Below, piece by piece: positions 5,061 to 32,411 of a stretch of DNA of 64,000 nucleotides. A program made the position numbers and the translations under genes. The notes under the pieces were generated by a model, which searched no databases, had not been told where the DNA came from, and saw nothing but the letters and a program-made list of their open reading frames with translations. Origin of the DNA: Raja brachyura (Eukaryota); assembly GCA_963514005.1 (NCBI GenBank), contig OY740810.1, forward strand, positions 10,850,001 through 10,914,000. Direction: 5' to 3'. Each line of letters begins with the position of its first letter. Positions within the stretch are counted from its first letter, which is position 1.

Positions 5061-6498
5061 AATAAGCGAGTTCGGTATTCCGATAAACGCAAGGAATTAT
5101 GGGTTTTGTCAAAGGTCATTCGGGGAGAAAAAAACGAACGCAGTGCTGTATAAATTGTGTATAAATTGTTAACTATTCTACCAATTAATTAATCTAGAAT
5201 TCTGTCAACGCAATAGCTTCCTTTCTTGCTGTGCTGTTCACACGCTACTTGCACAGTCCCAATTCTAGTTCTGTTCATTAATCTGCAACTATGAGATATT
5301 CAAAATGTTAAAGAATTTATTATTTTCATTTAATCCTTAATGTGTTTGCTACTGGAATAAGAATATATCACTTGTGTTTGAAACATTTTCTTATCTTTAT
5401 TAATTTATGTGTCAAAAATTTATTTAATCTGAGGCAGGCAGCGACTGTATCAGTGTGATGTGGGCTGATGCTTTGCCTACAGGCAGTGTGAATGTACTGT
5501 TGAGACGGGGGTCGGCAGCCTACGGGACAGTTTTGACTAAAATGGTTTTACATTGTGAAGTTCACTGTGCCTGAGTTATTGATCAGAGTGAACACCCGCT
5601 CCTGTGGACACATCTCACTGTGGAGTCTGTCACAGACGGATTCCACTGCCTGTTCAATAATTGGATCGATCTCCTGAACCAGTGGCTGCGGATCTACCGC
5701 TGTGTGTTCTTTCTGAACTGAACTCGCTGTTGAATGAACCCATTAACAGAGTCACTCTGTTGCCAGATTCTAAGTTGTCCCTGCCTTCCCTCTGGAATCC
5801 TCCTCATCCCCATCAGATGCCGAGTTCCCAGAGCCCTGGTTAAATGTGGCCGGTCATGGTTAAGTCTGTGAAACTGGCCCCATCAGAGACTGTGGGGAGG
5901 ATTAACAAAAGAAAGATGGCAGTAGCGAGAGTGAGAGTCTGTTTCAACAGTTTGTTTATTTTCAGCTGAGTTAAAAAAAAAAACACAAAGCGACCTGAAT
6001 GATCACCGCACTTATTGCTGATGTCCTACATGCTGCCATTGATTACTATGGCAGTATATATGATTACAAGTTACAGTACTATACCACAAGGAGTGAACAA
6101 ATCCAAATATAACAGAAAACTGTAAAAGTTCGTTTGCCGAAGTTCTTACTAGGCACACTAATAACTGCAATGAGCTTTAAGCAATATTATGTCTACTGAA
6201 CATGGCAGTTAGTTTGAGACACTGGTATAACAGTTATATACACCTGAAGCATAAAACAATAAAACACCAAAGCATAAAGCAATAAAACCAACAAAATTGT
6301 CATAGTTTTGTACAAATAAACCATAAATACACCTAGTTGATAGTTTTGAAAGCAGTATTTTCTTACCTCGAAGAAGCAAAACTGGAAAATACGGATGAAA
6401 CACAGCTCTCTGCACGCAGCAGCTCGGCTGGTGAGAATTTTTATCGCGAATGACTTATGACATGGGCATGAGCAGTTGAAATACCGAACTCGCTTATT
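5061..6498. mobile_element. Element A: non-autonomous DNA element with perfect 19-bp terminal inverted repeats (AATAAGCGAGTTCGGTATT)
   Basis: 5061-5079 is the exact reverse complement of 6480-6498; both subterminal regions are homologous to the ends of the elements at 12949-14493 and 16278-16980; no TSD evident. Confidence 0.8.
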
Positions 6499-6949
6499 GA
6501 TAGGACACTTCTTTTGGAGAGTAGTAATAAAAACTTGGACAAGGAGAAACATGTGATCAGTGCCACATTTGAAACGGCCAAAGCTCCAATAAATTTCATG
6601 TTGACTCTGCAGTCTGGTCTGTAAGTACATTGTTTATTGATTTATTCATTCTCCTATACCCTTCGCATTTGGCTTCTAGACCACTTTGTGTTATTGGATA
6701 TTTGATGGATATTTCGGAAGGTATGGTACCATGCCAGTTGCAAGACCTGTAAGAGCTATGTTTTGACTAATATTGTTTTTAGAAAAATTATATTCTATTT
6801 TTATTGATATATTTACTGCTGTCCCCAACTCTAAATTGTTGGAGCGTAAGTTTGGTCCTCTGATCTGTTTTGACACTGATATGTTTTTTCCATATAATTG
6901 GAGGGATATATTTCTACGGTCTGAAATGAGTAGAATTATGTTGCATACA

Positions 6950-8625
6950 CCGTACCCTCCATAATGTTTGGGACAAAGACCATCATTTATGTATTTGCTT
7001 CTGTACTCTGTAATTTGAGATTTGTAATAGAAAAAATTGCATGTAGTGCACATTATCAGATTTTAATAAAGGCTATTTTTATACATTTTGGTTTCACCAT
7101 GTAGAAATTACAGCAGTGTTTATACTTAGTCGTCCGTCGTTGTCCGTCTCCGTCTTCTCCCCCCCCCCCCCCCCCCCCACCCCATTTCAGGGCACCATAA
7201 TGTTTGGGACACAGCAATGTCATGAATAGTAAAGATAACTACTTTCATATCTTGTAGCATATCCTTTGCATGCAATGACTGCTTGAGGTCTGCGATTCAT
7301 GGGCATCACCAGTTGCTGGGTGTCTTCTCTGGTGATGCTCTGCCAGGCCTGTATTGCAGCCATCTTTAGCTTATGCTTTTTTGGGGGGCTAGTCCCCTTA
7401 GGTTTTTTCTTCAGCATATAAAATACATGCTCAATTGGATTCAGATAGGGTGATTGACTTGGCAACTCAAGAATTGATCATTCTTTAGGTTTGAAAAACG
7501 CCTTTGTTGCTTTAGCAGTATGTTTGGGATCGTTGTCTTGCTGTGGAATGAACCGCCGGTTAATGAGTTTTGAGGCATTTGTTTGAACTTGAGCGAATAG
7601 GATGTGTCTATACACTTCAGAATTCATTATGCTAATAACATCAGCAGTTGTATCATCAATGAAGAAAAGTGAGCCAGTACCTTCAGCAACCATGCATGCC
7701 CAGGCCATAACACCCCCACCACTGTGTTCCACAGATGAGGTATATGCTTTGAATCTTGGGCAGTTCCTTCACTCCATAATTTGCTCTTGCCATCACTCTG
7801 ATATAAGTTAATTTTCGTCTCATCTGTCCACAAGACCTTTTTCCAGAACTATGGTTGCTCTTTTAAGTACTTCTTGGTGAACTGTAACCCGGCCATCCTA
7901 TTTCTGCAGCTAACCAGTTGTTTGCATCTTGCAGTAGAGCCACGGTATTTCTGTTCATGAAGTCTTCTGCGGACAGTGGTCATTGACAAATCCTAAAGAG
8001 TGTTTCTGACCTGTCACATGTGTTTGTGGATTTTTCTTTATTATAGAGAGAATTCTTCTGTCATCAGCTGTGGAGGTTTCCCTTGGCTTGCCAGTTCCTT
8101 TGCGATTAGTAAGCTCACCAGTGCTCTTGCTTCTTAATGATGTTCCAAACGGTTGATTTTGGTAAGCCTAATGTTTGGCTGATGTCTCTAACTGATTTAT
8201 TCTTGTTTCTCCGTCTCATAATGGCTTCTTTGACTTTCATTGGTACAACTTTGGTCCTCATGTTGATAAACAGCAATAAAAGTTTCCTAATGTGATGGAA
8301 AGGCTGGAGGCAAGACAGGGTGCTGAGAGCTCTCTTGTACCTGCATTAAGGAGGCAATGAAACTCACCTGAACAATTACAAACGCCTGTGAAGCCATGTG
8401 TCCCAAACATTATGGTGTCCTGAACTGGGGTGACTATGTGCAAATACATCTGTAATTTCTATATGGTGAAACCAAAATGTATAAAAATGGCCCTTAATAA
8501 AATCTGACAATGTGCACTTTAACCACGTGTGATTTTTTTTTCTCTATTACATATCTTAAATTGTGGAGTTCAGAGGCAAATAAATAAATGATGGGTCTTT
8601 GCCCCAAACATTATGGAGGGGACTG
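6950..8625 (-). mobile_element. Tc1/mariner transposon with IR/DR-type long TIRs; transposase pseudogenised
   Basis: Terminal ccctccataatgtttggg inverted repeats, with inner repeats at ~7189-7210 and ~8398-8420; minus-strand fragments WTDETKINL, GGGVMAWACM, QQDNDPKHTAK, SPYLNPIEH (DD34E type) in different frames; TA at the right flank. Confidence 0.92.
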
Positions 8626-9329
8626 TACTTAAAATGTTTTTGAGGTTCTCTGTTAGTTATGAGGTTTGTGACATTACTTATTCTTTGGAGCTGCCAGATA
8701 TATGAATATCCAGCAATTTGTCCTCCACAGCTTTGCTGATTTCATAGAAATTGTAAATTTAACGGCACAAACTTCAGATTTCCAACAATAAAAATAATCT
8801 TGCATCTTTTCTGCCAAATACCTTAAATTCATGTTAAAATTGAAATTAAAATATCTCGTTCCCAATGGGAAATGGTTTGGCGGAGTGCATGTAGCCTGTA
8901 AATGTTTAGATGTGGAATTTACTTTTTTCCAAAAGTATTGGATGTGACTTCAGAATGAAGACAAAATGTTTCTCGCTTCCTTTACTTTGGTTACCTTCTA
9001 TCCATCAAATGCCCACACGTGTAGACTGCTTCTTACTTTCCATGACCAAGAACATAAAATTTGAGGAAGATATTTCTCAGCACAATTAAATAAATTGTAC
9101 ATACTTAAATATTGCATCTACTTAAAATGATTTTGAGATCTCAGTTAATTATGAGAAATTGGATTGTGGCACTTGTGACTTTTCTGATTGACAGGAGCTA
9201 CAAAATATATGAAAATACAGAAATTGTCAAGCTCACGATCAACTTGATAGTATTGCTGATATATTTCATTAAAACGATGATTGAGAGTAGACCTGGTGAT
9301 AATCAGCCATATTGGATGTTTTGTGGTCG

Positions 9330-10270
9330 GGACATAATGTAGGTAATTTTTCACATTACTCGTGTTGATCAGCATTGCCAGTGTATTGGGACAGCTCATT
9401 CTGGAACACAAATCTTTACTACTATAATCACAATGTCTAATCTCAGGGTTTTTACAGTCTCCTGGGCTCTCAGCTGTTTCTTTATACCGCATGGACTGAA
9501 TTATACTGCAGAAGACTGACTTCTATAATGGTGGTGATCTCAGGAGGCCTTTGATGGATCATCCACTTGGTACTTCTGGCTGAACATGTTTGTAAATTCT
9601 TTACCCTTGTGTTCAGCACTCATGCTGGATTGTTCCATGGTGGAGTATGGGGATGTTCTTGGTGTTTCCTCATTAACTATTTCATGTTTGACCTCCTGAA
9701 TTTAACTGAGCTACAGAGCATTCATCTGATGCATTATTTTTGGGATTGGTTAGTCCTAGCTGTTTGCAGGGCTTTTTGCTCTTTACCATGCATGTAGTTT
9801 TATGTGGCGGCTTCACCAGATTGGCACTCAATTTTTAAAATTAATTTATGGTGTTGATCTCTTCTGTAGTCTTGTAGCAGGATTGATCCCTTGGTTAGAT
9901 TGTAATGTCAACATGAGGAATAGGCTGGGGTTTCTTATTACATTAACAGTAGAGTACATTTCTGTTGCTGATGGTTCATACTGAATGACCTCATGGATGT
10001 CCACTTTTGAACTGTTGTATGTTTTGAGCACAACCAGATGCTAGAGTTGTCATGCCGGGATGTTAAGGCAGCACTGATACAGCTAGGTGACATGCTGCCT
10101 CACCATTAACTGCGAGGGAATTCTAGGCCTTTTCACTCCTGTGTGTACACTACGGTACTGCCACATTGGCAGCCGACTTGGGGTGTGATCTGAAGAGATT
10201 GAACTGGGATCTGTTGCGTTTATATGATTGATTGAACCCGTGTTGATTGACGCTATGCAAGTAATAATAA
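9330..10270 (-). mobile_element. Old CR1/L2-group LINE fragment
   Basis: Minus strand ...FSQKYQVDDPSRPP-like phrase at ~9545-9590 plus decayed flanking RT-like sequence. Confidence 0.45.
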
Positions 10271-11819
10271 CGTGATCAAAATTTGATTTGAAGTTGACTT
10301 GGTATTTGCAGAAAGCGGACCAAGAACCTTTTCTCACTGTGAGAAATAGACCATGAACCAGGTGGATCAATTAATGGAAATCTTATGAACACCTGTTGGG
10401 GATATCCGTGAATATCAAAGGATATATGGTCAAAATTCTGACTACAAATCCAGAATTTAGCCACAACAGTGCAAAGGCTCCATTTGCTCACTTAAGGATC
10501 CAAGGGGAGACTGAGACATATCAAAGTAAAATGAATTTGAGAAACAACAGGGGCATTGAGTGCAGTGAGATACAAAATGCTGCTATTAAAATGTGCAAAT
10601 GTTAAAACCGTACAAGGTTTTTCTCCCTTAATAAAGGGACAACACAGGTTATTAAAGACAAGTAGGCAATATTGTTAGGCACTTTATTAAATTAAAACTT
10701 TGCTGATTAAAAAGCAATTAACTGCAGATGTTGGAAATCTACAATCAAATGCTGAAAATGCACAACAATTGTGTAGAGAGAAGGCAGTAGTTAAAGTTTA
10801 AGAACATCCCCCTCCTCAACTCTGTTTTAGTCTTCCACGCCCTGGACAACTCATCGCTGTACCTTCTCGGAACATTCTCCTTTCTAACTCTTTTCTGCCC
10901 ACCATTCAGGGAAACCAGCAGTGATTCACTTGTATATCAATTTAACGAGAAACATTCAGTGTTCACTTTGTTGTTGTATTTATATTGCAGAAATCAGATG
11001 CAGATTAGGTGACTTCTTTGTAGAACTCTTCAGTTCAGAGACAACCATAAGCTTCTAGTTGCTTGTCACTTTAATTCTCCATCCCATTCATACTCTGATC
11101 TCTTTCTTAGAAGCTCGCACTGCTCCAATGAAGCATAACACAAGCATAAGCATGCATCATTGTCTGAGAAGGCCATTTGCAGCTATTGGGTGGGACTCGA
11201 CAATAAATTCAGCAATCGGATAACCAACCTTTCCAGTGTGTGTCAGAACTGATCAGTTCCGCCACCAGGTCCTTGACCTGTAATGTTGATTCATTTTGTT
11301 TACTTCCATCAGAAATGCCACCTGACTTCCTGAATGTTCTTTTATTTAATATTTCCAATTAACACTCTGTTCCAGTATTTTGTTTTGCTCTGTTTTCCTG
11401 CATCTCATTGGACAAATCAGTAAGTGTTAACAAGCCTTCACCATTTGTTAACCAATGTTAACAAGGTCAAGCAATGTTAACTGTTTCTTTTATTGATTGA
11501 TCCACTTGTTAATTATTCATAGATTTGTTTTATTGGATCTGTTGCCTTTTATATATTTCCAACATTTCCTTTTTATCCAAACTTTGTTCTTTCTGCAGAG
11601 AAAGTTAAGAACCTGCACAAAGGAATCTTAGATTCATTCAATAGGAACTGATGATGAAATTATAATAAATCCAAATTTGCAGATATTGCGACACAGCTGT
11701 ATACATCAATGGGAATGTAAACTGAATGAGAGATGACAGATACAGTGGCTGATGGAATTAAGGGACCAGATTTTGCTGTGTATAAATTTTACAGTTGCTG
11801 CCTAAGACTGGTTTTAGTC

Positions 11820-12280
11820 TTACTGAATTCATTTTCAAAAGATTGAAGTTAAGTTTGCCTTAAGTATGAATTCAAGTTTGGCTCCTAAAAGATGGGGAAT
11901 TGAGAATCCGTGCAAGCCTGATCCACATAATGGCTGAGGAAATCTTTGTCCGATGCCTTATTCTTACCTTTCGTCCTTGGAGCCCTAAAATCTCTGTTCA
12001 GATGAGTAGGTATGGAGATCCCATGCACGTTGTGCTTTGCTGACTCTGTGGATAATCCAGTGGGTGAGTTTGGCAACGGATTCCTCTGGTATTTTTGTCT
12101 TTTGATAGGTTTAAGCTGAAATCCTGAACTTGGTTGCATTTTCAAGTAGAACTATGGTATTTATCAGCAGGTTCTGGACCACTAAAAATTATGATGTCAT
12201 CCACTTTGGACATAAGATTCATACTTAAGCTAATGGCAAACTGATCTTCATCTCTAGCAGATTGACTATTGGAATTTAGT
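11820..12280. mobile_element. Possible old MITE with degenerate inverted ends
   Basis: CTTAAGTATGAAT (11859-11871) and ATTCATACTTAAG (12217-12229) are exact inverted repeats, with looser complementarity extending outward. Confidence 0.35.
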
Positions 12281-12948
12281 ATTTGGTTCGGAATAGTGCA
12301 TGTTGGAGGACATGAACATGTTGAGACTTTGAGACAAATATAGCAATCTCCAGAATGACGCCATGGTTCAAAAGTTTTCAGACATGATTGGAAAAAATCT
12401 ATTGAAATGAGGCAGACATGAGTTGCATTTCCTTTTATCTTAAATTGTTGAAGGTGATTTAACCAATGTATTTGTATTGACTTAAGTATTTAGTAGAATG
12501 TCTGTGCAAAATCTGTTCTCTGGATGACTTCTGATTAATAGAGTATAATTGCAACTAGGGCTGGACTATTTAAGAATTAAAACCAGGAAGCGCCTTTCTT
12601 CTTCAATGCAAATCCTCAAAGACTCCTTTCCAATGCTTCTTCCCACCCCAATCTATTCACTCTCACAACCACCACCCTCAGTAAATAATGTGAAATGAAT
12701 TTTTCAAGGTTTGAGATTACCATGTTGTATTTGGCAGATCTATCGATATGGGGTGCGGTCGGTGCAAATCAGTGTGATCTAACTATGGCGTATGCTTGGC
12801 GCTAACTAACCTACTGTACATGGATTTCAGTTTAGTGTTAGTATTCACATTGCAAATATTTTAGGCACTCCTATTAACATTATTAAGGGACTTCTGCACA
12901 TCCATATTTTCAGTCCATACCTTATTTGTCAAAGGAGTATCTTCATTT

Positions 12949-14493
12949 AATAAGTGAGTTCTGTATTCCGACTGCGCATGCCCAAGTCATAGGTCCCTCG
13001 CTATAAACATTCTCGGCAACTGTGGTGTGCAGGCCTGTGTTTCGTCCGTGGTCGGGTCTCTAGCGCTGCGAGTGCTGTTGAGTTGCTGCTGGGCCGTCCC
13101 CTCCCGGGTGTCCCGTCCCTGTCCGAGGGCAGCCCCAGACTTGCGGGGGGTGGGGGGGGTGCTGGCTCTGCTCTGGCTCCAGGGGAGCCGTTCCCCGACG
13201 GGCTGGTGACCTTGGCTGCACTTCTCGCCTTTCCCAGTGGCTGTTGAGAACTTGCATTCCCTCAATGGGAAAGTTGCCACCGCCCCTTGCCTCCAGTCTT
13301 TCACACTAAAGTACAACAGCCCCCCACAAAACCAGAGGGGAGGATGACACCCTATGGGAGACGGCACCCAGTCACAGCTTGGGAGAGGCAACAGGGAGGT
13401 CTTCTCCACCTCCACCCCCCTCCCCTCAGCCCGACACCGAGATCCTGCTGAAGATGGGCAGCTGCCAGCCCTGTTCGAAGACAGGCGACTCGGAGCTGCT
13501 GCTGGAGTCCTCCTGGTCGGAGAGAGAGGCTGCGGACGGGCTCCTGCCGGCCATTGGCAGGCCGGACGCCCACTGTTGGTGCTGGCGGCAGCAGCAACCT
13601 CCTCTAACTCCCTTGCCCAGCCTCAAGCCCAAAGTCCGGTCCAACTCCAGGTCAGGGCTGAAGGCCACCCGCAGTGCGGCCCAGTCGAGCGCCGGGCCGG
13701 AGGAGGCTGGGCCCAGGCCGGGGCCCTCGCTCCCCCTCAGGGTTGTGGATGAAGTGGCAGCTGGTGCCATAGGGGCAGAAGCCGGTGGTGTGGAAGGTGC
13801 GGCATGGTTCTGTCGTACTTGGGGCGGAGGCTGAGGGAGCGCAGCTTGGCCAGGTCATGGGCGAACTGGGACTTGTCGTTGTAGCGGCCCATCGGGGAGT
13901 GGCGTCCTCTGGAATTGGAATGGGGTTGGGCTGGAGTTGACGCTTCTTCTCTATGCTGGCTGTGGGCCTGAGACTGCTGGTGTCATTGGGCGACTGCTGG
14001 TGCCAGGGCTGTAGGGAGAGGCGGAGATGAGCTGGCGTTGGCGCTTCTTCTCCGCGCTGCCTGGGGGCCGGGGACCCGGGTTTGATCCTGGCTGCGGATG
14101 AGGCGCGGGGCTGTGTGCGAATGTCTCTCCGCCGGTCCAGTCTCCCCCTCCCCCCCTCCCCCCCCCCCCCCCGGTTTCCCATTCGCATCTGCCCCCTCTA
14201 TCGCGCTATTACGCCCCGCTCTCCCGCCTGGCACCCCCTCTTCCTCAGATTAAATATATTTTTACACATAAATCATGAATAAAGATAAGAATTTATTCAC
14301 GGTTTATACAGTCAGCGTTTCGTTCGTAATTTGAGTCAGCCTTGACAAATATAAGCTAGAAATAAGACGACAAATCAGACCCAAACTACACTCACTGTAT
14401 CGACAGCACTTTGTTTGATTTTTCTTTATAGCGTTTGACCTTTGACAAATCCCATGATTCCTTGGGTTTTTTGGAAAACCAAACTCGCTTATT
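12949..14493. mobile_element. Element B: same family as element A, inverted, carrying ZFP36-family cargo
   Basis: Begins AATAAGTGAGTT (12949) and ends AACTCGCTTATT (14493); 12949-13050 matches the A right end; 14243-14291 and ~14400-14493 match the A left end (reverse complement). Confidence 0.8.
13426..13886 (-). pseudogene. ZFP36/TIS11-family (ZFP36L1/L2-like) gene fragment, frameshifted
   Basis: Minus strand: [24 protein letters not shown] /frameshift/ [24 protein letters not shown] (tandem CCCH finger) and, in another frame, SLSDQED...ESPVFEQGWQLPIFSRISVSG* (C-terminal NOT1-binding motif). Confidence 0.88.
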
Positions 14494-14565
14494 AATTGCA
14501 AAGCAAGTTGTTTCACTCCTTAATGATCTTGCATTTGTCATATTGTTGTATTTTTGTCTTTGTAG

Positions 14566-14609
14566 GACAAACATCATGACGCTGCTCATGAAATTATCGA
14601 AACCATCCG
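14566..14609 (+). CDS. DOT1L: DOT1L exon 2
   Basis: ag|DKHHDAAHEIIETIR|gt, 44 bp. Confidence 0.96.
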
Positions 14610-14869
14610 GTAAGAATTGAAGTGGTTTTATTATTTTTTTTGTATTCTCTATTCCAGTTATCTCGTGTAATTTAGATGTATATATTAATTAGGATTTGTT
14701 CTAAAATGTAATAAAGCTGAAAAAATCAGGTTAAATGGAGCAAGCACGTTTAAAATAATACTTTCAGCCACCCCAGGCATAGACCGCCATGATGCATATC
14801 TTTGTTCAATACCCTGGTCAATTGAATTAATTAATTAATTACTGGGATTGCATGGGGGAAAAACCTGCA

Positions 14870-15002
14870 TGGCCGTGGGATGAGTGGCCAGAGCATGCGG
14901 AGGATACATGGGGAGAACATGCAAACTCCACACGGACAGCACCTGTCAGGATTGAACCCAGGCCTCTGGCGCTGTGAGGCAGCAGCTGTACCATTCTGAC
15001 GC
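14870..15002 (-). mobile_element. V-SINE fragment
   Basis: gggagaacatgcaaactccacacggacagcacc...ggattgaaccc is the reverse complement of the SINE head and V-domain. Confidence 0.7.
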
Positions 15003-15024
15003 CCACTTAGACGCTGAGTTATAA

Positions 15025-15126
<102 letters not shown>

Positions 15127-16277
15127 TAAGGATGTCTTCTGATAATTTTGAATTTAATTAACAATGAAATTAACATTTGAATGTGAATCATGCTGATGCT
15201 GAAGAGATTTTATGAGTACAGGCAGTTCTCCTATATCGTGTGTTTCCATAATGTTAATGGGATAAAATGCGATGGATGAATTGGGGAACACTATTTATAT
15301 ATGCAGGCCGAATTGTTTATGAAAATATTTCAAACGATAACTAGAAAACCACTTGAGTTACTTTGGAGGATAGAAAGTGTTGGAGAAAATGGATAGGTGG
15401 TGGTTTGGTGTCTTCAGACTGCAGACTCTTCTGCAGTCTGAAGCAGGGTCCTATTCACTTTCTTCACAGATGCTGCCTGACCCGGCTGAGTTTTTTTTTG
15501 TAAATCAGCATCTGTGGTTCTTTGTGTCTTAAGTTACTTTGGAAATTGTTGAGCAGAAAAAACACTGTCTTGGTTTTTAAAAAACCTGTCACGGTGAAGA
15601 AGAACTGTTTCCATGGAGGCTACCAGCTAGTTTCACAGCGTGTGGTCAGTGAAATTACCAAGCAATTACTTTGATTGATACTGGTGCAATTATACTATGT
15701 TAAACAATGTAACCTGCAACTTTCAATAATTTTAGCTTGCAGTAACCAAAATTAACTTCCAATATTAAAAAAAACTGTTTTTGAAAATTCTGCAGGAAAA
15801 AAATGTCAAGCACTTTCTAGTCCCTAACCACCACCGCCATATTTGACGCAATTGTTTTCAAAGGAATTTTCTATAATGTGAGATTTCTTATAATACAGCA
15901 ATAATGTTGTAACAGACCCACCTATAGTGGAAATTAAGGCAGTTGAACAAATTCCATATATCCATCCTAGAATATTAAAAACAAAACAGAAAAAAACTGA
16001 AATGCTAACTCGATTTCCCTTTGCACAGATGTGGCCTGACCACCTGAATATTTCCAGCAATTTTTTCTTAGATTTTCTCAAAACTTCATTGTTCATTCTA
16101 AGGGATAAAAACTACGAGCCACTTATTGGAATAGGGAGACCTGAGATTCTAAAAATAGTGCATTCTTAAATACTCTTTGTGTAGTGATTAGCAAGGTTTG
16201 TGTAAGGGTTCTTTAATAGGACATTTACTTGAAAGCTCCCAGTATGAAAATTACTATTTATTAAACAATAACGATGA

Positions 16278-16980
16278 TGGGGTGGGGGGGGGGGGGTGTG
16301 GAGATTGGACCGGCACTCATCCGCAGAACTGCGCCTCATTTGTAGCCAGGATCAATCCCCGTGTCCCTGCAGCCACAAGAGCTGCCGAACCGCCACTGGA
16401 CCATCCCCGGTTCTTCCCCCCACTCGAGTGTCCCATCCTCCCCCGGGGGGGGGGGGGGGGCGACCGGAGATGTCTGGACCAATGGGACACCGCCCCCAGG
16501 CCCACCGCCAGCATGAACCCACAGCCAGCGCCAACTCTAGCCCAACCCCCAACCCCGCTCCAACTACAGAGGGACTCGCTCCCCGATGGGCCGCTACGGC
16601 GACAAGTGCCAGTTCGCCCACGGCCTAGTCGAGCTGTGTTCTGCCCCTATGGTAACCCCTGCCAGTTCATCCAGCCGGCGGCTGCCCATCTTCAGCAGGA
16701 TCTCAGTGGGAGAGTGAGGGGAGGTAGGTGGAGGGCTGCCGGCCAACCCGGCAGAGCCGAGCAGGAGCCAGCGGCTGCAAGTCCGGGGCCGCTCCATCGC
16801 CCCGGACACCTCTGGATGGGACACTGGGGAGGGGACGGAGACGTCCCAGCAGCAAGAAGAGCACCCCGACCCTGGACTAAACGTATGCCTGCACATAATG
16901 CAGCACCACCGTTGCCGAGACTTTGTAGCTAGTGACCTATGACCCGGGCATGCACAGTCAGAATAGCGGACTCGCTTATT
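16278..16980. mobile_element. Element C: internally deleted relative of element B; left end not clearly preserved
   Basis: Ends gacctatgacccgggcatgcacagtcagaatagcggactcgcttatt (16980), homologous to the A right end; 16278-16400 aligns with the reverse complement of B ~14050-14175. Confidence 0.75.
16592..16717 (+). pseudogene. Deleted ZFP36/TIS11-family fragment
   Basis: Three out-of-frame pieces: RYGDKCQFAHGLVEL / FCPYGNPCQFI / SRRLPIFSRISVGE*. Confidence 0.85.
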
Positions 16981-29625: not shown

Positions 29626-29979
<354 letters not shown>

Positions 29980-30531
29980 TGAAAATTATGTCCACATTTT
30001 GTGCCAGATTAATAAATGACAGACTGTTCAGTACCAGAAGATCAAGCAAACAATCTTGGGTTCAACTGATATATGTTTGAGCATTTCTGATAAGATTTAT
30101 GGATCTGAAGAGGAACTTGAAAACGTGAACATAATAAACCTTGTAGTCTTTTGTTCATTTTTACTTATGTTCACTCTTAAATGCACCAAGAAAAATCTGC
30201 ACATATGGTTAGATTACAGTATTGTGAAAAGCATGATCTTTTAAACCAAACGCATTCAATACTTTTATTTCTAAATACACTTTTGATGTTGCATTTAATT
30301 ATTTTGAGCTATTATCACTTAATCTGTGGAGAATTTGCAAGTTCCTCAGTTTCCAACAGTGTACAGCCTATTGCACTTTATCTGTTTATATATGTATGTG
30401 TATATATGGTCTATGCTATATAGTGACACTGAACTGTTCTGTATTTATGCTTACAATTCTCTGCTGTACTGCAGCAAGCAAGAATTTCATTGTCCTATCT
30501 GGGACACATGACAATAAACTCACTTGACTTG

Positions 30532-31508
30532 GAATAGAATAGAATAGAATGCTATTTATTGTCATTTAAACATCTAGGTTTGAACGAAATTGCATTTCCT
30601 ACAGTTTTGTTTTACATTACAAAAAAACCTAAGACCCACACTTAACACAGTTTACACAAACATCCATCACAGTGAGTCTCCAGCACCTCACTGTGATGGA
30701 AGGCAAAGTCTTATCTCTTCCCTTTGTTCTTCACCCGCGGTGCAGCAGTCCAACTGCAGCGTCTAGGCGAACTCGGGCTCTGATGTTAAAGCCCCCGGCG
30801 GACGACGGTAAGTCCTGCGGCCTTTAAGCCACGCCGGGCGATGTTAGGCCCCGGGTCCGTGTCCTTTAAACCCCGCGGTTCAAGCAGTCCAAACCGCGGT
30901 CCAGCAGTCCAACTGCAGCGTCTAGGTGAACTGGGGCTCCGGTGTTAGAGCCTGCAACGGACGATGGTAAGTCCCGTGGCCGCTTACCCGCGCCGGGCGA
31001 TGTTAGGCCCCGCTGCGTGTCCATTAAACCCCGCGATTCCAGCGGGAGAAGTTGCCGTTGCGGGAGCTCTGATAAGCCGTCTCCCACCAGGGACCTGGAG
31101 CTCCCGATGTTCCTGTCCACCGGGCCTGCAGCCGGAGCTTCCGAAGCTCCAAAGTAGGGTCGCAGTCGAGTGCCACCACAGCTCTCCCTGCTCCGAAGAC
31201 GGCCAGCTCCGCGATGTCTTGTCCGCAGGCTCTGCGACTGGAGCCCTCGGGCTGGTCCCGGCCGGAGGCCGCCGCCGGTTCCACGATATTAGGCCCAACG
31301 ACACCAGAGACCCGACAGAGAAAAAGTTGGGTCCCCGTACAGGGAAGAGACTAACGGTTTCCCCCACATCCCCCCCTCCACCCCCCACATATACACAGCT
31401 AAAAAATAATAAAAACTAAGCTCAAGACATACATATAACAAGATAAAAATTTAAAAAAAGACGGACGACTGTAGTCGAGTCTCTGCCGTTAGGCACCGCC
31501 ACACCCAG
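30532..31508 (-). mobile_element. GC-rich non-autonomous retroelement with internal tandem duplication
   Basis: (aatag)n tail plus tttattgtcatt LINE-type 3' end on the minus strand; ~120-bp internal direct repeats at ~30734-30852 and ~30893-31011; inserted in a (cttga)n tail. Confidence 0.6.
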
Positions 31509-31769
31509 ATGACTTGACACTGTAAGATCAGTGGTTTATTAATTATTGTATTACTGGTCTCAAGTTTTCAGAGAAAAATCTGGTGAATATTGAATAAAAG
31601 TCAACATAATTAAAATTAGTTAACAAAAACATGGTGCTAAATTTAATCTGTCAGTTGATTTTATTTTGCATAGTTCTGAGAGTCTGTTTTCAAAATAACC
31701 ATTTTATCTACGAGGATTCATTATCTACAAATGTGGACTTTATTGGGATTGAAAACAAATCCCAATAAA

Positions 31770-31927
31770 GTAAAAACCAAATAATTAATAAAGTCAAGAG
31801 AATTGCAGTTAGAAAAAGAGGCTGCCCCAAGAAAATGAGCACTGCAATTTCAAAAAGAAATACAAAGAAAAGTCAATCTGCACTGGATCTTTTACATGCT
31901 CAGACTCTCTCAGCATCCTTGCTTCAG
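31770..31927 (+). pseudogene. Intronic partial copy of DOT1L exon 14
   Basis: Near-identical to 29711-29868; no flanking splice sites; RGRP changed to RGCP. Confidence 0.92.
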
Positions 31928-32411
31928 TATCTACAAATGTGGACTTTATTAGGATTGGAAAAAAATCAGATTACTTGTAAAAATATAATATTTAAACCTG
32001 CATGGAAAAAGGTAGAAATAGACTTTGGTAATTGACAAATAATGAAAATATTGATTAGGCAATGATGTTAAATGTGGCTGAATGTCATGTTTCGTTGCTC
32101 TTTGGCACAATAACTTGCTATTAAAATTCATTTGCAGTTTTAAAGATATTACGTTGGCCTTGTTTCATGTATACATATTTGATTCTTTAATTACAACAGA
32201 TGGAGTTCAATACCAATTTTGGCTTTGTCCTCATGCATTGTGTCAATATGCTGTTTCAGCTTTATAAACATTTTTGGCAATCTTTAATGTAGTTGAGAGC
32301 AATTTGTACTTATCTTGGGTGCCATTTAGCTGAATCACTTTGTTCATTGCAACTGATAATTATCAAATTGTAGCACGGGAAAACCGTTACTCATTTGCTT
32401 TCATTTTTCAG

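Follow-up and report, generated by a model that had tools for sequence, protein, structure and literature searches.

A high-copy Pack-TIR carrying a ZFP36 fragment in the genome of the skate Raja brachyura

Animal transposons that hold host DNA between their TIR ends, such as Pack-hAT-N8_XT and Drosophila Ssk-FB4, are known as Pack-TIRs. The available portion of a survey of 100 animal genomes (PMC8277862, Tan et al. 2021) gives four multicopy cases in vertebrates, namely frog and alligator, and puts the copy number at three to five in the examples; 87% of the surveyed Pack-TIRs belong to hAT and Tc1/mariner. The same portion covers rice Pack-MULEs, for which small-RNA effects have been reported. 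In bat Helitrons, host gene pieces occur at hundreds to a thousand copies, for example NUBPL in HelibatN3 (accessible text of PMC4224331).

ISL2EU elements target A-AT-T and have TIRs that usually start with GG, which is a tendency (PMC4482050, sections consulted); their gene set consists of a THAP-HTH-DDE transposase and a YqaJ gene (PMC4482050, PMC4122938). The target of Spy is AAATTT (PMC4122938), and Spy has a single ORF, usually without THAP. Within the sections consulted of three sources, ISL2EU is reported in vertebrates from teleosts only, with none in the elephant shark (PMC4482050, PMC4122938, PMC9179366); one describes ISL2EU as absent from the elephant shark and tetrapods (PMC9179366), another describes PHIS as absent from sharks (PMC4482050), and the same sections of all three contain no case of gene capture by ISL2EU.

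Here we describe element B, located in a window of 64,000 bp of Raja brachyura DNA (GCA_963514005.1, contig OY740810.1, positions 10,850,001 to 10,914,000), which is the whole stretch analysed. The family of element B is a Pack-TIR: TIR sequence is present on both sides, the single parent gene is not flanked by the element, and the copies were multiplied by transposition. As in Pack-hAT-N8_XT and Ssk-FB4, host DNA lies between the TIR ends, the parent is distant and unflanked, the target sites are distinct, the cargo is GC-rich, and microhomology is found at a junction. In contrast to the surveyed Pack-TIRs, this family has more than 270 copies, an ISL2EU carrier and, as cargo, coding sequence of an RNA-decay regulator. 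With ISL2EU it shares the A-AT-T target, the TIRs and, in its relatives, the THAP-HTH-DDE transposase and an opposite-strand YqaJ match, but its TIRs start with AA and its host is a cartilaginous fish. Bat Helitrons are rolling-circle elements that carry mostly 5' gene ends, whereas the present element moves by cut and paste, has TIRs and carries the 3' half of a coding sequence; rice Pack-MULEs are alike in that transposition multiplied a GC-rich genic cargo acquired by copying in trans (PMC8277862, available portion), but belong to a different superfamily and kingdom. A literature search and a term search of the little skate genome paper (accessible text of PMC10115646) found no description of the element; Repbase, Dfam or supplements could hold one. 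We put the probability at roughly 0.85 that element B is a non-autonomous ISL2EU transposon with 0.6-0.7 kb of ZFP36 that was captured once by DNA template switching and spread by the transposase of its relatives.

Element B, its target site and its setting in DOT1L

Elements A and B are located in intron 1 of DOT1L, B in antisense orientation, and element C in intron 3 (Table 1); the gene is on the plus strand, with exon 1 upstream of the window. The exon closest to B is probably DOT1L exon 2, judged by the protein sequence and the exon order. Five TIR matches at up to 3 mismatches (0 in 100 shuffles) define A, B and the right end of C. Element B represents the long-UTR form of the family and element C the short-UTR form. 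The presence of three family members within 12 kb of DOT1L introns (5064-16977) is more than an even spread would give, and B and C, being inverted around exons 2-3, could pair in the pre-mRNA. A search with element A gave 990 candidates, with matches in all 40 that were scored, and no Pfam match was found in the frames of three copies of A. Elsewhere, the window contains a 159-bp GC-rich tandem pair (30735-31047) and a 158-bp direct repeat with copies 2 kb apart (29711-31995).

Table 1. Coordinates of the mapped features in the window
Feature	Position	Strand	Remarks
Element A	5064..6495	+	same TIRs, different interior, no ZFP36
Flank A and one copy of the AT target duplication	12949..12951	+	
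Element B, predicted non-autonomous ISL2EU-family transposon	12952..14490	-	1,539 bp; copies elsewhere end at exactly the same bases; TIR matches
Right TIR of B, 20 bp	12952..12971	+	2 mismatches; same end on L198
GC-rich (68%) interior downstream of the cargo	13060..13245	-	common to cargo-free members
Captured ZFP36 fragment	13255..13888	-	matches L026:1430-2128; 89.5% identical, gaps ignored
Parental 3'UTR, ~170 nt	13255..13425	-	AU-rich element (L026:2694) and poly(A) signal (L026:2840) lie beyond its end
LPIFSRISVS C-terminal motif and TGA stop	13426..13461	-	
CCCH finger 2	13745..13804	-	Pfam zf-CCCH match, E 1e-9
CCCH finger 1 (second half) with linker; a 2-nt deletion follows	13815..13886	-	
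5' junction	13885..13892	-	element-derived ATG in frame with the cargo; 4-nt GCCG microhomology (13888-13885)
GC-rich (67%) interior upstream of the cargo	13891..14240	-	common to cargo-free family members
Left TIR of B, 20 bp, then left-specific subterminal stretch	14471..14490	-	3 mismatches; also the left end of L198, which bears transposase remains
Second copy of the AT target duplication and flank T	14491..14493	+	
DOT1L exon 2	14566..14609	+	72 bp from left flank of B
DOT1L exon 3	15051..15125	+	E 5e-9 to DOT1L chains; further exons found
Element C, second family copy, short-UTR form	16278..16977	+	left end lost, most of the cargo deleted internally

The right end of B (12949) together with its flank is bridged by single contigs in four public runs from four organisms, so that three other organisms (B, C and D) share the insertion; over 652 bases, the contig of organism D shows 40 differences and 15 gaps. 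The cargo is covered by many contigs in each of the four runs. The left junction is bridged in X1 and X9 only, the flank at 14556-14850 being without cover in X3 and X8. The bridged insertion and the cargo contigs in four organisms together imply that insertion and amplification predate their split.

Sharp ends at window positions 14493 and 12949 are common to 20 of the 40 scored cargo-matching loci. The flank consensus is AAT on the left (67 ends) and ATT on the right (41 ends), with the AT letters present, per position, in 64-65 of 67 left and 38-40 of 41 right flanks; AT is kept on both sides in 29 of the 36 two-ended cargo copies. One copy (L005) is inserted in another repeat, whose 11 paralogues serve as an empty-site comparison: six have AATT at the insertion point, and the others are variant or unaligned there. 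Because an AT duplication in A-AT-T and T...A ends without duplication give the same letters, the empty sites alone cannot separate the two.

Transposase-bearing relatives and the class of the carrier

Assignment of the carrier to a class comes from relatives that have the same ends. A DDE_Tnp_4 search gave 152 matches, and among the 30 loci fetched, one (L110) has a family end. Its relative L108 contains an open frame of 542 codons with THAP, HTH_Tnp_4 and DDE_Tnp_4 domains, and a genome search for this transposase yielded 37 candidates that were scored. Of the 21 longer transposase stretches, 17 have one family end or more, and both ends, in variant form, are present at six distinct ones (L183, L186, L188, L190, L193, L196). 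Most transposase-bearing copies have the variant left end; the B-type left end occurs only in L198, a 4,158-bp element with exactly the two ends of B, AT on both sides, and transposase remains in between. On the opposite strand inside L198, there is a YqaJ match (C13:16253004-16253348, E 5.7e-8); the genome search for YqaJ gave 17 matches among 26 scored candidates, and none of the eight single fragments of L138 gave a YqaJ match. An autonomous copy with both ends and intact frames was not found among the 21 loci, all end-bearing copies being decayed.

Because relatives with the same ends carry a THAP-HTH-DDE transposase and YqaJ remains, which is the ISL2EU gene set, we assign the family to ISL2EU (PHIS superfamily). 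That the resemblance to ISL2EU is superficial, and the element is of a different class (Spy or Crypton-like) that makes no target duplication, is very improbable. Such a reading would accommodate the AA at the start of the TIRs, in place of GG, and the A-AT...AT-T arrangement, which can also be read as a T...A-ended element in AA-TT. However, the relatives encode the ISL2EU set, and the fourth flank base is variable (A in 8 of 67 left flanks and T in 3 of 41 right flanks), not fixed as A/T, which excludes the AAATTT target of Spy.

The proteins nearest to the transposase are from the skates Leucoraja (95%) and Rhinoraja (77%, partial), followed by oyster, echinoderms and amphioxus (~45-53%); the best 120 of 307 include none named as coming from a shark or another ray. 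The transposon may have entered horizontally.

The intact L108 frame (527 codons; L108:424-2007; G000:C16:2678286-2679869, plus strand) has no family ends nearby, and a full-length protein of Leucoraja erinacea matches it at 95% identity. The two share DREF at a place where the siblings read DRGF, and the siblings carry several stops and frameshifts. A comparison against the family majority gave no sign of purifying selection on L108 (N/S 0.92 versus 0.95 in the siblings, p 0.87). L108 can be considered a candidate domesticated gene.

Several other transposon families were encountered. A young high-copy DDE family (L111-L137, for example, G000:C15:41466066-41469563), considered as a mobiliser, was rejected because it does not share the family ends; it is Harbinger-like, has dozens of copies, many of them 98-99% identical, with frames of ~469 codons, and is possibly still active. 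A second ISL2EU-like family (L109, G000:C19:10822352-10825858) has a 457-codon HTH-DDE frame and a YqaJ match on the opposite strand, and three YqaJ-domain frames of 376-389 codons lie within 50 kb at G000:C14:29040295-29089073.

The ZFP36 cargo, its donor and its spread

The cargo corresponds to a 699-bp stretch of the donor that extends from the middle of finger 1 through the stop codon and ~170 nt of the 3'UTR, and its GC content is 68%, against 39% in the window. An initial annotation, made from the sequence alone, had described half of finger 1, the linker, a complete finger 2 and LPIFSRISVS with a stop, broken by frameshifts, and both the frame reading and the Pfam zf-CCCH match agree. 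The span that it proposed, 13426..13886, contains these core parts, but the cargo starts at 13888 and runs on to 13255, into the 3'UTR. The three blocks (the finger 1 half with the linker, finger 2, and LPIFSRISVS) are in three different frames, and the frame changes are explained by deletions of 2, 23, 6, 33 and 3 nt relative to the parent gene. One finger-1 cysteine is replaced by serine, and an intact pair of CCCH fingers in one frame is not present in B. The C-terminal motif presumably corresponds to the one with the CNOT1-binding role. Compared with ZFP36/TTP proteins (PDB 1rgo, 1m9o), finger 2 and this motif are recognisable, whereas finger 1 is without its first cysteine, the frames are broken, and there is no promoter, exon 1 or AU-rich 3'UTR element.

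A zf-CCCH search detected three intact tandem-finger genes in the genome, on C8, C9 and C40. The cargo aligns to the C40 gene (L026:1430-2128), an intact gene of two exons, the second of which contains the entire captured stretch. This gene is the best-scoring parent for all 62 copies compared, so the search for a donor paralogue that the initial annotation had proposed ends in a single parent. MED29 is located ~80 kb away (C40:16.664-16.666 Mb), a linkage that we take to be that of human ZFP36; for this reason, the donor is likely ZFP36 (tristetraprolin, TTP) itself, apart from the L1- and L2-like genes on C8 and C9. The ZFP36 type of the fragment had been recognised from the start, whereas the class of the element and the donor had been left unnamed; the element is now assigned to ISL2EU, and the donor is the C40 gene near MED29. 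The closest named relative of the donor comes from the skate Rhinoraja (83%), followed by sawfish and manta, an order that puts the genome among the batoids, and the database names of its relatives are mixed. No family ends were found within 50 kb of the donor. Finger 2 of the donor reads KTEPC (L026:1500-1530), compared with KTELC in the other two paralogues, and the copies inherit KTEPC.

In a fragment search of the genome, 40 of 401 candidates were scored, and all 40 match at 73-100%. A cargo 23-mer, at up to 2 mismatches, has 274 matches in the genome, one of which is the parent, and the reversed control has 0; this count leaves out the other two paralogues, which differ at three or more positions. 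Since the motif is present in 22 of 36 independently found copies, the total is suggested to be ~450, as a rough estimate. Among the first 29 places by position (30 rows), 16 have both ends, 12 have one and one has none, so that 28 of the 29 keep an end; over the full set of 63 distinct cargo loci, both ends were located within 1.5 kb at 36, a single end at 25 and neither at two. The count of cargo hits flanked by the element ends, which the initial annotation had called for, is thus 61 of 63 with at least one end. The long UTR is kept in six of 62 copies, B included, and most copies end ~20 nt after the stop (the short-UTR form). In a tree of 43 copies and the parent, the topology is star-like, with the parent on a short branch and the long and short forms unordered. 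With no mismatch allowed, a 38-mer from the left end gives 50 genome matches, and only two of the 30 loci fetched contain ZFP36, so the larger, mixed family consists mostly of elements without this cargo.

The dispersed matches, the one 5' junction found in most copies that reach that point, the one parent for 62 copies and the star-like tree indicate one capture followed by a burst, as the initial annotation had proposed on the basis of two copies. Its null case, in which only two copies exist and arose by local inverted duplication of a processed pseudogene, fails given the 274 dispersed matches. Local duplication or, more broadly, spread by segmental duplication would be in line with the location of B and C, 1.8 kb apart and in opposite orientation, but the probability of this origin is negligible: no two cargo loci have common 150-bp flanks, and B and C are of different forms and 82% identical over the aligned columns.

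Other coding cargo was searched for in 141 open frames (drawn from 227 listed, with seven ZFP36 controls added) of 21 ZFP36-free family loci, and no Pfam match above the cut-off lies inside the element. An XLF match in L094 was rejected as cargo because it is located outside the right end of the element. One family member (L142:638-2669; L103) is open in six frames over 1.1-1.4 kb, likely a tandem repeat between the ends.

Capture route, decay and possible effects of the copies

Five cargo-free siblings share the interior upstream of the cargo, and four of them continue with GCCG, the same letters with which the cargo starts in the parent. The upstream junction is the same in B and C, as the initial annotation had it, and is placed here in this GCCG microhomology (13888-13885). 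At the 3' junction, ~9 nt of filler separate the cargo from sibling sequence, with no microhomology. In the siblings L105 and L106, the slot between the junction points is ~280 bp long, and part of it comes from a repeat of which the window has five occurrences; the cargo would thus have replaced an interior slot that in siblings is filled by a piece of another dispersed repeat.

The 5' microhomology, the replacement, the lack of poly(A) and the distant parent are in keeping with an origin by template switching and later transposition, as has been proposed for Pack-TIRs that occur in several copies (PMC8277862, available portion). Alternatively, a fragment of ZFP36 mRNA or cDNA could have been patched or retroposed into one element and then amplified by transposition. 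The cargo lies wholly in exon 2 and in mRNA sense, with no intron or upstream DNA, which would suit this alternative, and missing introns indeed cannot separate DNA from RNA capture, as the initial annotation had pointed out; the siblings hold the dispersed-repeat piece in the same slot, and retrogenes nested in bat Helitrons provide a precedent (PMC4224331, accessible text). However, the cargo ends ~710 nt short of the donor poly(A) signal, and the marks of a processed pseudogene are missing: comparison of the junctions showed neither poly(A) after the cargo, in agreement with the initial annotation, nor a target-site duplication of its own around it. Furthermore, interior sequence appears to have been replaced, not added to, and microhomology is present at the 5' side. 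The junction features lean to DNA-level copying, and entry through RNA appears unlikely.

The likely course of events starts with a broken element under repair, into which 0.6-0.7 kb of host ZFP36 would have been copied once by DNA template switching, and continues with the likely spread to several hundred places by transposase from autonomous relatives. A later deletion probably gave rise to the common short-UTR form, and the burst would have taken place before the lineages of at least three other sequenced organisms split off. The copies present today are probably passengers without protein function.

Over 44 copies, N/S is 0.96 (at codons where the majority and the parent agree), and 43 of the 44 are frameshifted; against the majority sequence, N/S is 0.79, lowered by one site class. 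The dN/dS check that the initial annotation had suggested thus yields no selection signal. There are 36 premature stops in 43 copies, the majority sequence of the copies and the parent disagree at 15 codons (10 silent changes), and the median distance of a copy from the majority is 5.5% outside CpG sites, compared with 18% within them. The evidence on function points to neutral decay; given the broken copies and the lack of any sign of selection, the capture was likely neutral and unusually prolific.

Could copies be functional, now or in the past, as a truncated TTP of 177 residues, with one finger and the C-terminal motif, translated from the junction ATG, or through intronic copies whose antisense transcripts or small RNAs adjust the level of ZFP36 mRNA? 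The element-derived ATG is in frame in 35 of 42 copies that reach the junction, five of the 42 read through from this ATG to the C-terminal motif, and B, antisense in the DOT1L intron, retains close identity to the parent (Table 1). However, four of the five read-through copies depend on compensating frameshifts, and a truncated annotated protein resembling the L009 frame was not found among 183 candidates, which include one full-length protein only. Together with the N/S value and the frameshifts, this makes a function of the copies distinctly improbable.

Most of the 30 fetched zf-CCCH loci match element B, and these repeats inflate the number of CCCH fingers counted in skate genomes. In this family, a cut-and-paste transposon has brought coding sequence of a vertebrate regulatory gene to hundreds of copies, some hundred times as many as in the multicopy examples from vertebrates in the available portion of PMC8277862, and the carrier belongs to a group that, in the sources consulted, is reported in vertebrates from teleosts only. 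Because the cargo-free siblings and the parent gene both survive, both capture junctions are readable, which makes models of capture testable. We consider it doubtful that an ISL2EU transposon from a marine invertebrate entered the skate lineage and that, because it turned half of the TTP gene into a repeat family of several hundred copies, ZFP36 mRNA became a target of the small RNAs with which the host silences transposons, or of intronic copies in antisense orientation, B in DOT1L being one, with a few copies that may express a one-finger TTP tying up CCR4-NOT. The question that the family poses is whether the silencing of such repeats may spill over onto the parent mRNA.
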